Under the pieces are notes generated by a model. The model had not been told where the DNA came from. It was given only the letters and a program-made list of their open reading frames with translations, and did no database searches. Positions 3,354 to 14,943 of a stretch of 64,000 nucleotides of DNA are shown here, in pieces; the first letter of the stretch is position 1; each line of letters opens with the position of its first letter. Source of the stretch: a virus (lineage: Duplodnaviria > Caudoviricetes); IMG/VR virus record IMGVR_UViG_3300031992_000076, positions 13,904-77,903 of that record, one strand, 5' to 3'. A program made the translations under genes and the position numbers.

Positions 3354-3382
3354 ATTATAACATAAATTTTTAAATTTGTCAA
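3354..3382 (-). promoter_or_regulatory. Sigma-A-type promoter
   Basis: TTGACA-17 nt-TATAAT with extended -10 TG. Confidence 0.85.
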
Positions 3383-3870
3383 ATACCTATATAATTCATA
3401 TGATGAATACGCTGATTTGTTGAGCCTCTCCATTTTAAGGTTAAATCTTTTTGTTCCTTAATAAAAGGCCCATCTATCAAAAAATTTATTTTACTTAAAA
3501 TAAAATTAATTGTATCATTATTCTCTTTTTGTAAATCTTCTAATAAATATCCAGTCCAAATAAAAATTTTAATATGTGGGAATCGCATTCTCACATATTT
3601 AATAATATCTTTAACTAACTCCCTATTTTCTGGGCAAAGAGGCTCTCCGCCTAAAATAGATAAATTTCTTTGCACTCCATTTGCAACAAGAGCCATACAA
3701 ATTTGTTCTTTTATGTTTTCTGGAAGCGGGAAGCCACCTTTAAAATTCCATGTTTCTGGATTAAAACATCCAGAACAATGATGGGGACATCCTTGCACCC
3801 AAAAAGATACACAAATGCCCTCACCATTTACAACATCATTTTTATTTAATGCCGCATATCTATACTCCAT
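3379..3870 (-). CDS. nrdG: Anaerobic ribonucleotide reductase activating enzyme (radical SAM)
   Basis: CPHHCSGC radical-SAM motif, DG-F...WRGSTNQR; start set at MEYRY after GGGAGA RBS. Confidence 0.95.
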   Translation of the reverse strand: MEYRYAALNKNDVVNGEGICVSFWVQGCPHHCSGCFNPETWNFKGGFPLPENIKEQICMALVANGVQRNLSILGGEPLCPENRELVKDIIKYVRMRFPHIKIFIWTGYLLEDLQKENNDTINFILSKINFLIDGPFIKEQKDLTLKWRGSTNQRIHHMNYIGI

Positions 3871-5008
3871 TATTTTTTTCTCCCATTTGAAGTTTTTTGC
3901 TATGAACATAGCGGTCTTCAACTTCTGCTTGTTTACCTAAATTAAAAGAAGATTTGTAATCTCCAGTTAAATACCCTGTCACTCTACGTAAATGTTGTAT
4001 ATGGCTGCCGCCGCATTGAGGACAGGTATCATTAATTAGTCCTGTATATCCACAATCTTGACATAAATCACTGGGTACGTTTAAAGCGAAATAGGGGATA
4101 TCTTTATCCATCGCATAATTTACAATAGTTTCGAGAGCATCTATGTTATCTAATATAGCACCTTCAAGTTCTACATAAGTAATACATCCCGCAGAACTGT
4201 ATCCTGTCAATTGAGATTCAATATCAATTTTCTCAAAAGGAGAAATTTCTTTCCAGACGGGTACATGCATGGAATTAGTAAAATATTCTCTATCACTTAC
4301 ATTAGGGATTTCTCCATATTGAGCTTTAAATTTCTGCATACTAGTATAGCAGAGGTTTTCAGCTGGAGTCATATATACACCAAAATTAAGTCTATATTCT
4401 TCTTTAAACTCGGCACAACGGTCTTTAAATAATTGCTCTATCTGTTTAGCCAACCTCATACCTTTTTCTGTTGTGTGATCACATCCTATAAGAATTTGAA
4501 GTGTTTCGGCTAAGCCAATTTGACCTAATGCAAGTGTGCCATGCTTTAAAGCGCTACGAATACCTTCTTCTGGAATATATCCTGCCATTACATTATTTTC
4601 ATACATAAATTTTGCGGAAGATGGATCTTGACTACATATATATTCAAAACGCTCAATCAATCCATCTTTAGTGTCATGAATTGCTTCATCAAGAAGTTCC
4701 ATAAAATCTGTTATCAAATCTTTTATATTATCATTTGGTCCAGCTTCTTTTAAAGTTTTATTATAATATTCTTTTGCTTCCATGGCTATCGTTGGAAGAA
4801 TTATAGTTGCAGGACATATATTACCTCGTCCATCTTTTTGAGCAGCAGAAATATAATTATCATATAAATATCCTGTTTCTATTACTGATTGAATATTCAT
4901 TTGGTAGGAATTGAACGCGTTAATGTCTGCCCCATTCTGGGTTCTGCATCCCATGGTCGAGAACAATTCTACCGGAGTCTCGGTCTGTTTAATTCTTATT
5001 TTTTTCAT
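3860..5008 (-). CDS. nrdD: Class III ribonucleotide reductase, C-terminal fragment
   Basis: FSTMGCRT finger-loop Cys, CQDC/CPQC Zn site, RRVTGYL glycyl-radical loop; own AGGAGG RBS 9 nt upstream of ATG 5008. Confidence 0.9.
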   Translation of the reverse strand: MKKIRIKQTETPVELFSTMGCRTQNGADINAFNSYQMNIQSVIETGYLYDNYISAAQKDGRGNICPATIILPTIAMEAKEYYNKTLKEAGPNDNIKDLITDFMELLDEAIHDTKDGLIERFEYICSQDPSSAKFMYENNVMAGYIPEEGIRSALKHGTLALGQIGLAETLQILIGCDHTTEKGMRLAKQIEQLFKDRCAEFKEEYRLNFGVYMTPAENLCYTSMQKFKAQYGEIPNVSDREYFTNSMHVPVWKEISPFEKIDIESQLTGYSSAGCITYVELEGAILDNIDALETIVNYAMDKDIPYFALNVPSDLCQDCGYTGLINDTCPQCGGSHIQHLRRVTGYLTGDYKSSFNLGKQAEVEDRYVHSKKLQMGEKNNGV

Positions 5009-5552
5009 TCTCATAATCCTCCTTAAACTTCCAAATATAACCTCCAGCAGTTTTTTGTTTTCCATGAAGCACGGTTGAAATGCCACCTTTCCAAATATTA
5101 TTTTTTTCTCCTGCTTCAAGAACACTATCATATTCCGCAATAAAATTACCTTTTAAATCAAGTTGCACGACAGGTTTTTTAGGAGGTCTACCTTTAAAAC
5201 CATTAGCCTTCGCGGATTCATATTGATGTTGACGAGCAAGAGGAAAAGAAACATTTTCTGCATGAGTACACCATCTTAAATTATTTACATTATTATTTAA
5301 TTTATTGCCATCTATATGGTCTACTTTATTTCTACCTAATTTAATATCTTCTTCGGTTTTTGGAATAAAAGTTTCAGCAACTATTTTATGTACCATTCCA
5401 AAACTTAGGGCATAATAGCCCCAATCATTAATTTTTAACTCTATTAAGTTTCCATCTCTTTTTATGTTGCCAAAATTAGAAACTTCCCAAGTACTAGCAT
5501 AAGGATGCTTATCATCTTTTAAATCTCTAAACACTTTCCATATTTCTTTCAT
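4989..5552 (-). CDS. Free-standing HNH homing endonuclease (NUMOD4/HNH_3 plus NUMOD1-type tail)
   Basis: WEVSNFG, VHKIVAETF, VDHIDGNKLNNNVNNLRWCT, C-terminal GGISTVLHGKQKTAGGYIW; own GAGGAGG RBS. Confidence 0.92.
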   Translation of the reverse strand: MKEIWKVFRDLKDDKHPYASTWEVSNFGNIKRDGNLIELKINDWGYYALSFGMVHKIVAETFIPKTEEDIKLGRNKVDHIDGNKLNNNVNNLRWCTHAENVSFPLARQHQYESAKANGFKGRPPKKPVVQLDLKGNFIAEYDSVLEAGEKNNIWKGGISTVLHGKQKTAGGYIWKFKEDYENEKNKN

Positions 5553-5553
5553 A

Positions 5554-6930
5554 TTAAGCATCCTCCTCTTCGTAAATTTCAAGCATTAAAATATTTTGTA
5601 ATTCAGGATTTTCTTCTAATCTTTGAATTAAAATACTATATTGACTTTCAGATAAAGAATTTATATATTCTTCTTTTTGTTTTCTATCATAGCTTATCCA
5701 ATCTTTCTGCATTTGAACATCGCAGTTCGCGTAATTAGGATACAATCTCTTGGCCGTAGATTCAAGAGCTAATCTATATAAATCATAATTCGGGTCACCA
5801 GGTTTGCGATTCACACCACTCATACATTGGAATATTGAACAAGGGAAGATAGGAGTTTTATGGAACTTGCCCACACCCTTTATGCTTCCTTCAAGAAGAG
5901 CTTTTATTACCATTCTACCCTCGGGAAGGGTGCATGTACCAAAGTTGATACTTGTGAACGGGAGCTGATTTCCCGACCTAGATTGGAGAGTATTGAGGTT
6001 GTGAAACATTCCCTCAACTGCCTGCTGTGTTTCTTTAATTGTCATATCCATAGCATATTTATATACTTTGGGAAACATTTTATATTCTGGGGCATCAATA
6101 TTCATTTCTTCTGCAGATTTCCAAGTATCTATAACTCCATCACTTGTTTCTTTAAATATACTTGCATCTTCTATATAATACATTCCATCTTTGAAATGCT
6201 TTCTAAAGCTTTTTCTAACATATGGAACCATAGTCCAATCTAAATGAGTCGCAGCGACTCCGCCAAATTGCTGTAGAGACTGAAGCTGAAATATCACAGC
6301 TATAAGTTGAAATGCGGTGTTTACACTATTTGCAGGACGTACATCTGTTTGTCTTGTATTAAAACCTTTTGCAAGTAAATCATCAAAAGGGATAGAAAGA
6401 CAGTTATGATCACCGAGTGCATAATCTGATAAATCATGAATATAAATTCTATTATTTACATGATTAAATTTTGCTTTTTCAGATACGCAATTATCAAGTG
6501 CATATTCTTTCATTAGTACAGAGTCAGCTTCTCCTTTGCGCCCCCCAAAACTATGTTCATCAAGATTTGCATTTTGATTTTGAACATTCGTGGCTTGAAG
6601 TTTTTCTTTGATAACCTCCATCATATGGTTATTCCATTTACGAACTTTATCTCGATCATGGCGGTATTCAATGTAGGCAGTTGCTACATCTTTTCTCTTT
6701 GTAGACATAAGTCCATGCTCAACAAGAGTTTGAATATCATCAATAGTCAGTTCATTGGGTAAGCCACTCATATATCCTTCAATATAATCTGCAATATTTT
6801 GAGCCTTATCTTCTGCATATTCAGAAATATCTCCATCTACATCTTTAAAAGCGGCAAGAACAGCATCTTTAATTTTTTGTGGATTAAATAGTTGGCGAGT
6901 ACCATCTCTTTTTATAATATAAAAATCCAT
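5554..6930 (-). CDS. nrdD: Class III ribonucleotide reductase, N-terminal fragment with ATP cone
   Basis: IIKRDG ATP cone, IYIHDL, HNCLS, QFGG, TPIFP, KRLYPNYAN; stops before FSTMGC. Confidence 0.92.
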   Translation of the reverse strand: MDFYIIKRDGTRQLFNPQKIKDAVLAAFKDVDGDISEYAEDKAQNIADYIEGYMSGLPNELTIDDIQTLVEHGLMSTKRKDVATAYIEYRHDRDKVRKWNNHMMEVIKEKLQATNVQNQNANLDEHSFGGRKGEADSVLMKEYALDNCVSEKAKFNHVNNRIYIHDLSDYALGDHNCLSIPFDDLLAKGFNTRQTDVRPANSVNTAFQLIAVIFQLQSLQQFGGVAATHLDWTMVPYVRKSFRKHFKDGMYYIEDASIFKETSDGVIDTWKSAEEMNIDAPEYKMFPKVYKYAMDMTIKETQQAVEGMFHNLNTLQSRSGNQLPFTSINFGTCTLPEGRMVIKALLEGSIKGVGKFHKTPIFPCSIFQCMSGVNRKPGDPNYDLYRLALESTAKRLYPNYANCDVQMQKDWISYDRKQKEEYINSLSESQYSILIQRLEENPELQNILMLEIYEEEDA

Positions 6931-6998
6931 TAAATTTACCTCCCTAATTATTATTATTTTAAGGTTTGTAAATATATTTGAAAAACACAATATATTGT

Positions 6999-7241
6999 TT
7001 AACTATTTTTGTCCTGTTGAAGTTCTAGCATACGACGGCAAATATACCATTTAGCTTTTTCTAAATCTTCAATTTCTTTAGAGGGATCTTTTCGTCCAGC
7101 TCTAGAAATATATTTAATAGCATTACCAAGACAAAAACCCAATTCCCAATCTTCAATTACCTCAATTGGTTCATATTTACGATTAGCCGTATAATGAGCA
7201 GGTTTATTTATATTATCATAATTTTGATTTACATTATCCAA
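6999..7241 (-). CDS. DUF3310-family phage protein
   Basis: INKPAHY...FCLGNAIKYISRAGRK...DLEKAKWY. Confidence 0.85.
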   Translation of the reverse strand: MDNVNQNYDNINKPAHYTANRKYEPIEVIEDWELGFCLGNAIKYISRAGRKDPSKEIEDLEKAKWYICRRMLELQQDKNS

Positions 7242-7542
7242 GAATATCTTCTCCTTTTTTGGTTATTGTAGCACCTAAAATTTTTTGTCCACAAAACATC
7301 ATATTTAAAATACCATCTAAATCATCAAATAAAATTTCTTCTTTGCGTCCCTTACATCCAATAGACATATAAGAACTCCAGCTCATTGGCTGTATAATAG
7401 ATAAATTCATTTTTTGAGATTGCTTTAAAATATTATTAGCTGCTATTTCTGTAGTGGTGATAATTCTTGCATTGGTAAAATGACTTAATATTATTAATGA
7501 AGTTGTTTTTCCTTGACCTCTAAATAATTCAATTATTTTCAT
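7234..7542 (-). CDS. Hypothetical protein with P-loop-like N-terminus
   Basis: RGQGKTT and ILFDD motifs in a 102-aa ORF. Confidence 0.6.
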   Translation of the reverse strand: MKIIELFRGQGKTTSLIILSHFTNARIITTTEIAANNILKQSQKMNLSIIQPMSWSSYMSIGCKGRKEEILFDDLDGILNMMFCGQKILGATITKKGEDILG

Positions 7543-13764: not shown

Positions 13765-14943
13765 TTACCTCACTAAGACTAATTTATCCTCGGGTCTGGT
13801 GCAGCACGTATATAACCAGCGTTTATGCTCTTCACGATCGAATGGAAAATTTTCTTCTATTACCAATACTTTTGGAAACTGGGAACCTTGAGCTGCATGC
13901 CCAGTTATTGCATAGCCATAAGTCGCTTGTCGAGGAAGAATATCTCCAATTTTGTTTCTTAATTTACCTAGTCTATATGAAACTCTCCAATCAACACAAG
14001 GATTTTCATCTAATAAAAAGTCTTTATCTAAATTAATTGAAGAATACGTGCTACCTACTTCAGGAATAAAATCGCACATGATAGTAGGTATTCTATGCCT
14101 ATCATTTTGAATATAATAAGGAATATTAATATAACTATTGTATATGTTATTCACTGTTCCTATAGTGCCATTCACTAGAGCGTCACCTTCATCATTTAGA
14201 TCTTCCCAATAATTTCTTTTTATAATGAGTTTTTCTCCTGGCATCAGTTCACCACTAAAACCAAGTAATGAACGTACTTGATTATTAATATTATGTCGAG
14301 TAATATTAGTTGCAGTAATTATAGTATCTGCCCATAAGAGATGTCCAGTTACAAGTTCTTTCTTAGGGGTTACTATTACTTCCTTACCTTGCATATAAGG
14401 AATTTCTTCTCCATTACGAATTTTCATAGTTAACTGAATAATTTCTGATTCAGCAGCTTGTCGCATAATCTGGTCTAAAAATACATGCGGATGAGTTAAA
14501 AGATCATGAGATTCAGTCTTATCAATCATTGGAAGCTGGCCAGGATCTCCTAGGAATAAAATAAAAACTTTATGTTTTAGAAGCATATCTATCATTGACT
14601 TAGGTACCATTGAACACTCATCTACAACTATAATTGTATAATCTAAACTCATTTTCGGTTTTCTGAAAAAACCTCCCCCTGGTCTAGGAATTGAATCATA
14701 AAGTAGGCGATGAAGTGTCATAGCATTTTTATTTCCTTTTTTACGAAGAACCTCTGCAGCTTTACCTGTAAAAGTTGCATAAGCCACCTTATCTTCCTCT
14801 ACATCCAGTGCCTCTATAATAAATTTGACTAGAGTCGTTTTACCTGTACCAGCATACCCCGAAATAACAACATATTTCTCATGATTTTTATATCTAGTTA
14901 AAGCTTCAGAAAGTCCAGCTTCCTGTTTTTCTGTTAATTGCAT
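13765..14943 (-). CDS. RecD-like/Dda-type SF1 helicase
   Basis: GYAGTGKTT, DECSM, GDPGQL, YAITGHAAQGS, YTCCTR. Confidence 0.92.
   Translation of the reverse strand: MQLTEKQEAGLSEALTRYKNHEKYVVISGYAGTGKTTLVKFIIEALDVEEDKVAYATFTGKAAEVLRKKGNKNAMTLHRLLYDSIPRPGGGFFRKPKMSLDYTIIVVDECSMVPKSMIDMLLKHKVFILFLGDPGQLPMIDKTESHDLLTHPHVFLDQIMRQAAESEIIQLTMKIRNGEEIPYMQGKEVIVTPKKELVTGHLLWADTIITATNITRHNINNQVRSLLGFSGELMPGEKLIIKRNYWEDLNDEGDALVNGTIGTVNNIYNSYINIPYYIQNDRHRIPTIMCDFIPEVGSTYSSINLDKDFLLDENPCVDWRVSYRLGKLRNKIGDILPRQATYGYAITGHAAQGSQFPKVLVIEENFPFDREEHKRWLYTCCTRPEDKLVLVR

Follow-up and report, generated by a model that had tools for sequence, protein, structure and literature searches.

What becomes of an enzyme whose gene has been cut in two, just ahead of a catalytic cysteine, by an endonuclease gene? 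The question is raised by a 64,000-nucleotide stretch of viral DNA, here called the window, which corresponds to positions 13,904 to 77,903 of IMG/VR virus record IMGVR_UViG_3300031992_000076 (77.9 kb, estimated to be 52% complete) and derives from an uncultured gut phage. In the window, nrdD, the gene for class III ribonucleotide reductase (RNR), is present as two pieces, and nrdD-N, a gene of the HNH endonuclease family, nrdD-C and nrdG are packed consecutively on the minus strand. Our reading, to which we assign a probability of roughly 0.7, is that a free-standing HNH gene splits nrdD at a hairpin turn, that the pieces are translated separately into two chains proposed to assemble noncovalently, and that the interruption spreads by homing of a cassette.

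Split RNRs have already been characterized in class I (phage Aeh1) and class II (NrdJa/NrdJb). Friedrich et al. reportedly described the Aeh1 class Ia enzyme as genes in pieces in 2007. In that phage, nrdA-a, mobE as well as nrdA-b constitute a class Ia RNR in pieces with terminal tails that are essential for activity (PMC3045599), and the precedent, which the preliminary description of the window had invoked, is real. Since neither intron nor intein is in evidence, the present locus looks like a class III counterpart of the two-piece Aeh1 enzyme.

Organization of the split nrdD locus

The preliminary description held that a free-standing HNH gene divides nrdD into two genes. Open reading frames (ORFs) and Pfam domains agree with it, in the coordinates of the three genes as well as in the position of the break between LYPNYAN and FSTMGCRT. 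The features of the locus are as follows.

5554..6930, minus strand: nrdD-N, 458 aa; Pfam ATP-cone and NRDD positions 2-249; TAA stop
6411-6385, minus strand: HNC cysteine of chain N, in the first half of the barrel
5557..5718, minus strand: tail of nrdD-N, 54 residues; three predicted helices and a beta-strand, LEIY (5583-5572)
4838..5718, minus strand: mobile cassette, 881 bp; tail, HNH gene, head, finger loop and extra loop
4989..5552, minus strand: HNH gene, 187 aa; Pfam HNH_3, I-HmuI_NUMOD-like and NUMOD1; I-HmuI-like, free-standing
5324-5253, minus strand: HNH motif of the HNH gene
3860..5008, minus strand: nrdD-C, 382 aa; Pfam NRDD positions 254-562 and Gly_radical
5002-4991, minus strand: head strand KIRI of nrdD-C
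4963-4940, minus strand: finger loop FSTMGCRT of nrdD-C, with the thiyl Cys
4918-4841, minus strand: extra loop of nrdD-C
4063-4007, minus strand: Zn ribbon of nrdD-C, with its CxxC pairs (CQDC/CPQC)
3988-3971, minus strand: glycyl radical motif RRVTGY of nrdD-C
3379..3870, minus strand: nrdG, the activase; Pfam Fer4_12 and Radical_SAM

Together, the two halves cover the NRDD barrel domain end to end in Pfam, and no other NRDD match occurs in the 52% of the phage genome that the record is estimated to hold. The hallmarks of a class III NrdD were all found, including the thiyl Cys loop, RRVTGY, the Zn CxxC pairs and the HNC Cys, along with NrdG. They are partitioned as first described: the HNC cysteine lies on chain N, and the thiyl Cys, Zn CxxC pairs and RRVTGY lie on chain C. 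In an assembled enzyme, chain N would thus contribute the ATP-cone and one active-site Cys, and chain C the thiyl Cys, the Zn site and the glycyl radical.

The nrdD-N, HNH and nrdD-C ORFs use three different frames, and each has its own Shine-Dalgarno (SD) sequence, as had been claimed; those of the HNH gene and nrdD-C are built from overlapping coding sequence. AGGGAGG stands upstream of the nrdD-N ATG at 6930. The SD of the HNH gene, GAGGAGG, lies 9 nt 5′ of its ATG and is encoded by the acidic tail end (EEEDA) of nrdD-N; that of nrdD-C, AAGGAGG, also lies 9 nt 5′ of the ATG, within the 3′ end of the HNH gene. A single nucleotide separates the nrdD-N stop from the HNH start, the HNH and nrdD-C ORFs overlap by 20 nt, and the start of nrdG overlaps the end of nrdD-C. 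Promoter-like and terminator-like sites were no more frequent here than in shuffled sequence, so the locus reads as one operon. The four ORFs would be translated in a coupled manner, with neither RNA nor protein splicing, and the sequence presents the arrangement expected of an Aeh1-type gene in pieces, in which a homing endonuclease gene (HEG) lies between the halves and each half has separate translation signals.

The same three-gene arrangement is present in four more IMG/VR contigs, designated L006, L007, L032 and L048, which come from other samples and represent distinct loci (L049, L046 and L047 are repeat retrievals among these, L047 being identical to L032). Because five independent contigs from different samples agree, an assembly chimera, the artefact against which the preliminary description had cautioned, is ruled out. 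L048 carries an ATGA stop-start overlap in place of the A-rich one, and coupled initiation is therefore a conserved feature.

Tests for introns, inteins and recoding

A self-splicing intron of group I or II that overlaps the HNH ORF could restore a continuous mRNA. nrdD is a classic intron host, as exemplified by T4 sunY, and relatives of the window carry apparent group I introns about 20 codons downstream, between FSTMG and CRT. The Rfam model Intron_gpI gave no match across 3500-7300 at E<=1, and at E<=10 it matched neither the HNH ORF itself nor the 231 nt preceding it. As positive controls, the T4 nrdD (sunY) intron scored 105 bits and that of Thomasclavelia phage TR-TP1 scored 28 bits on a short stretch. 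Atypical introns can escape Rfam, as did a GIY-YIG intron in the related locus L061, so the negative result is not proof by itself. The stronger argument comes from the layout: no non-coding sequence remains between the nrdD halves to hold an intron core, as just 1 nt lies between the nrdD-N stop and the start of the HNH gene, which in turn overlaps the start of nrdD-C. In addition, the 5′ flank is coding, under selection and homologous to a continuous protein, and the HNH ORF has diverged to dS values (synonymous substitutions per site) of up to 1.0, arguing against an embedded, conserved RNA core. The core of the T4 nrdD intron is positioned 5′ of its ORF; we considered whether the 176 nt preceding the HNH ORF might hold such a sunY-like core and rejected this, as the stretch is coding, homologous to continuous proteins and negative in Rfam. 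With no detectable core, and with flanks that appear to be coding sequence under selection, the locus would not be classed as a group I intron, in agreement with the initial description, and we regard a cryptic intron as very improbable.

Alternatively, the two NrdD chains could be trans-spliced by a split intein. Metagenomes contain fractured genes that combine split inteins with a free-standing HEG (PMC2677866), and the tail begins after ...YAN with a Cys. That Cys, however, is native to plain alleles (YANCDW). Pfam matched no intein domain in the ORFs, and no His-Asn-like residues stand ahead of the FST nucleophile position, where the sequence reads ...PVEL. Moreover, tail and head are homologous to an insertion that is retained in continuous NrdDs, and hence they are not excised. 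A split intein was rejected on these grounds, much as the preliminary description had anticipated from the lack of intein motifs, and we give it almost no credence. As far as the sequence can be read, neither intron nor intein features are detectable at the split.

A relative that has lost the endonuclease bears on several of these alternatives. L145 (IMGVR_UViG_3300028591_000118), a 122-kb record that is 78% complete, has lost the HNH gene from its nrdD (region 4780-4960); what was deleted is the sequence between two GAGGAGGAT repeats, of which one marks the tail end and the other the HNH end. Its nrdD still consists of two intact ORFs, with SD and ATG kept, and these are the sole NRDD matches in the record. 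The ORFs overlap by 20 nt that include an A7 run, in the +1 frame, and the final eight residues of the HNH protein now form the end of the N-fragment. L145 leaves no room for an intron, yet its nrdD is split and out of frame.

The A7 run also occurs in the overlap of the HNH and nrdD-C ORFs, and together with the +1 overlap in L145 it could be taken as a sign of recoding, by frameshift or bypass, to give a fused protein. In the window, however, 560 nt of HNH ORF lie between the nrdD halves, and what is conserved is not the A run but the SD and ATG, or the ATGA stop-start overlap of L048. Recoding is, in our estimation, barely plausible. Two separately translated chains are the reading with which we proceed.

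The break lies within a native insertion

The tail alone was used as a query against 5.8 billion proteins. The search returned 26 clusters, nearly all of which are N-fragments of ~450 aa with a common end point; the split is common to at least 24 protein clusters, and the position of the tail end is identical in about 24. Three continuous NrdDs were found among the tail homologues: P0026, L060 (854 aa) and P0022. In P0026 and L060 a homologous insertion reads ...ADRKQKQEYIESL...KVGLYVDDSKRIRVDMTERPIEYFSTMGCRT, and both have a second extra loop beyond the Cys loop. The insertion is also present in L062, a sequence truncated where its contig ends, and P0022 is a continuous version of the cassette type found in the window (...MLEIY-GG-KIRIKQ...FSTMGCRT).

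Because continuous relatives carry the homologous insertion, tail and head are not debris made by the endonuclease. By sequence comparison they constitute a lineage-specific insertion of about 60 residues that precedes the catalytic Cys loop, and new sequence at the split is confined to a handful of residues next to the stop and start. This modifies an early claim, in which the termini at the break were described as new and charge-complementary. Their acidic and basic character stands, but their novelty does not, as the continuous relatives (L060, L062, P0026 and P0022) share the hairpin; from the alignments, the termini would be its inherited turn, which reads DDSKR in L060. A defining property of Aeh1-type genes, unique tails that arise with HEG insertion, accordingly has no parallel in these sequences, where tail and head appear native.

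AlphaFold2 models of the continuous proteins (L060, pLDDT 83, pTM 0.81; P0022, pLDDT 83) fold the insertion into three helices followed by a beta-hairpin, with strands LYV/IRV in L060 and LEIY/KIRI in P0022 at pLDDT 86-97. The L060 model matches Prevotella copri NrdD with a target-normalised TM-score of 0.81-0.87. In both models, the turn of the hairpin is the position of the break, at a pLDDT of about 90, and the modeling therefore places the HNH gene exactly at the beta-hairpin turn. DSSP secondary structure of these homologues suggests that tail and head would contact one another across the two chains. We propose that an I-HmuI-like HNH gene was inserted at the turn of this ~60-residue insertion, ahead of the Cys finger loop, and that the resulting chains would join noncovalently through the native half-barrel interface, the helices of the tail and an interchain LEIY/KIRI beta-ladder.

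P0022, which is known from its protein sequence, has a Gly-Gly at the turn. These residues may be a fossil SD, GGAGGA, read as codons, in which case P0022 would be a split gene that was re-fused.

The HNH gene and a mobile cassette

The HNH protein (PHROG 59/959) has an HNH motif and a NUMOD-type DNA-binding module, by which it would qualify as an I-HmuI-like homing endonuclease; its target would be the plain allele of nrdD. Its counterparts in L006, L007, L032 and L048 are 86-100% identical to it and occupy the same site in nrdD, whereas the nearest relatives in cultured phages, the intron-encoded HNHs of Staphylococcus phage K-like viruses, are at ~35% identity. The ratio of nonsynonymous to synonymous substitution rates (dN/dS) of the HNH gene is 0.03-0.15, and the endonuclease is thus maintained. 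Megablast of the region against cultured phages gave no match.

A mobile origin is indicated by the distribution of nucleotide identity. Compared with L007, the window is ~70% identical over most of nrdD and 98-100% identical from ~5730 to ~4810, and the downstream edge of this block coincides in comparisons with L007 and with L032. When the nearest plain allele, L091 (81% amino acid identity over the N core), is aligned, homology ends at 5719 and resumes at 4837, such that 881 bp replace 105 nt of L091. The alignment to unsplit relatives that the preliminary description had called for thus maps the insertion. The edges of the cassette coincide with the conserved motifs LYPNYAN(CD) and KDGRGNICP, and the cassette consequently contains both a catalytic finger loop of its own and the extra loop.

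On the N-core tree, split and plain alleles are intermingled; 10 changes are needed on the best tree, and at least 4 are imposed by well-supported branches. P0015 and P0025, both split, cluster with L060, which represents the lineage with the native insertion, and this suggests that the L060 lineage is where the cassette originated. Judged from these patterns, the 881-bp block is a homing cassette that has left a footprint of mobility, of the kind expected of intron-less homing with co-conversion. Such homing has been described for T-even phages (PMC2988022). The HNH gene and a "split-tolerant" module would move together as the cassette, with plain nrdD alleles converted through break-induced recombination at the conserved motifs on either side.

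Selection on the split gene

If the split enzyme functions, the sequences on either side of the break should be constrained as protein. The dN/dS of the tail, in the N-fragment frame, is 0.21-0.25 among copies that differ at dS 0.3-0.9. For the head, it is 0.18-0.20 at a dS of about 0.8-0.9, and the catalytic loop, FSTMGCRTQNGADI, is invariant. Tail, head and HNH gene are under purifying selection, with dN/dS values of 0.03-0.25 overall. No copy of the cassette has lost either ORF, an SD site or a start codon. Function is also supported by L061, of the L060 lineage, whose nrdD is likewise split at this turn with just 21 nt from stop to start and no HEG.

These results have to be weighed against the possibility that the split inactivates nrdD, and that a purely selfish cassette resides in a dispensable gene whose halves are decaying or merely tolerated. 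Several considerations favor this alternative over an active two-chain enzyme. Phage nrdD is accessory and homing requires just homology arms, so a selfish cassette could spread even though it inactivates a dispensable gene. The dN/dS of the core, about 0.09-0.13 between split alleles and 0.07-0.15 between plain ones, is uninformative, as dS is saturated and divergence probably predates gain of the cassette, and it cannot prove constraint after the split. The nrdD genes of relatives are riddled with other mobile elements. And because the record is 52% complete, a second, intact nrdD may exist elsewhere in this phage. Against a purely selfish cassette stand the dN/dS of about 0.2 for tail and head at dS 0.8-1.0, with an invariant catalytic loop; the intact ORFs, SD sites and start codons, which extend to about 24 protein clusters; and L145, which retains both nrdD ORFs after losing the HNH gene. 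We consider inactivation unlikely, and incline somewhat, at slightly better than even odds, to a functional two-chain glycyl radical enzyme, with a cassette that would bring the HEG, a module that renders the break harmless and its own Cys loop. Assembly and activity of the two-chain enzyme are predicted from sequence.

Other interruptions of nrdD

To place the window among its relatives, we took a census of 157 distinct related loci, a biased sample in which the window is counted apart. nrdD is continuous and plain in 126 loci, continuous with the insertion in 2, and split at the hairpin in 5, making the window the sixth. In another 22, it is interrupted directly after FSTMG, at the catalytic Cys codon, and these interruptions look like group I introns with a GIY-YIG ORF, an HNH ORF or no ORF. 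Those in L017, L033, L037, L061, L165 and others resemble T4 sunY and have a core that translates as ...TIPDECKGVG...; the ORF-less ones are 350-430 nt in length. The clade has further insertion sites, one of them the T4 sunY site, ~80 codons upstream of the present break.

L061 (IMGVR_UViG_3300037400_005730; 1676-1960), a member of the L060 lineage, combines two kinds of interruption. The hairpin turn is again the point at which its nrdD is interrupted, here with no HEG, the break consisting of TAATAA, 21 AT-rich nt and an ATG with no obvious SD, and the GIY-YIG intron follows 20 codons later. L047 (the same locus as L032; IMGVR_UViG_3300032038_000031) has nrdD in at least five pieces, with the HNH split plus further intervening sequences at residues ~160, 330 and 363 of the N-fragment and residue ~162 of the C-fragment.

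The closest isolate, Thomasclavelia phage TR-TP1 (PQ571309), has an nrdD whose annotation shows two genes flanking an HNH gene. The element (L001:5261-6119; also in L010 and L040) is probably a group I intron, located between FSTM and GCRT: U is the last base of exon 1 and G that of the intervening sequence, and a sub-threshold Intron_gpI match of 28 bits lies in its 3′ part. Its HNH protein is unrelated to that of the window, at 27% identity.

In the remaining 2 loci of the census, L076 and L082, nrdD is continuous except for in-frame TAG codons. These sit where homologues have Tyr or Phe (F, Y, Y and Y in L082) and could reflect either recoding of the stop to an aromatic residue, unlike the known phage code in which TAG specifies Gln, or sequence error.

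Discussion

The nearest parallel to the window is Aeh1 (PMC3045599). In both, the catalytic RNR subunit is interrupted by a free-standing HEG of the HNH family, at a point in the 10-stranded barrel close to the finger loop. Neither involves an intron or intein, the HEG overlaps the downstream half, active-site residues are divided over two chains, and terminal tails are implicated in assembly. The differences are equally clear. The enzyme is a class III glycyl radical enzyme here and a class I enzyme there; the break here precedes the thiyl Cys, whereas in Aeh1 it follows; and the tails here are halves of a pre-existing insertion, shared with continuous relatives, which move with the HEG as a cassette. 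Activity was shown for Aeh1, whereas a two-chain enzyme is deduced here from sequence. Pseudomonas aeruginosa NrdJa/NrdJb, a split class II RNR (PMC4520616), likewise forms an RNR catalytic subunit from two adjacent genes and works as an (a-b)2 complex, but its break came without a mobile element and removes the C-terminal redox tail domain, leaving the barrel uncut.

T4 sunY, with I-TevII, and the introns between FSTMG and CRT share with the present element a host gene and the presence of an HEG, and the T4 and TR-TP1 introns likewise target conserved, catalytically critical codons and co-convert their flanks. They differ in having an RNA core (105 and 28 bits, respectively) and non-coding flanks; relative to the break, the T4 intron lies ~80 codons upstream and that of TR-TP1 ~20 codons downstream. 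With the I-HmuI-type HNHs of the polymerase introns in Staphylococcus phages K and Sb-1, the protein shares an HNH_3 motif and a NUMOD-like domain. Unlike those intron-borne genes, it is free-standing and its translation is coupled to the nrdD halves.

Fragmented nrdD genes have been noted before. Six split nrdD genes of phages were catalogued in a 2013 survey, which ascribed all of them to introns, inteins or unknown causes (PMC3653736), and a 2026 paper on Jug jumbo gut phages found nrdD fragmented in 95 of 104 genomes, including one junction without evidence of splicing (PMC12880540). As in the window, nrdD of a gut phage is cut into pieces by endonuclease genes in the Jug phages; the report is descriptive, treats the breaks as introns or inteins and contains no analysis of a two-chain enzyme or mobile cassette. 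A full-text literature search found no description of a class III two-chain (genes-in-pieces) enzyme or of this cassette, and no split version of any other glycyl radical enzyme. The preliminary suggestion that the class III case is undescribed therefore holds for the two-chain enzyme, but not for fragmented nrdD in gut phages as such.

If the two-chain enzyme is functional, a single homing event would suffice to make a working split enzyme out of an intact nrdD, and the split can outlast the HEG, as in L145, or be re-fused, as perhaps in P0022. The radical-storing Gly and the thiyl Cys would share one chain, with half of the barrel and the allosteric ATP-cone on the other, providing a natural system for asking how NrdG activation and allosteric signals cross a chain boundary. 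The locus would also illustrate a route by which an HEG can enter the region of an essential site without an intron or intein, by riding in a portable, structurally permissive insertion. Two-ORF nrdD genes in gut and rumen phages are likely to have been misannotated as pseudogenes or as intron-containing genes.

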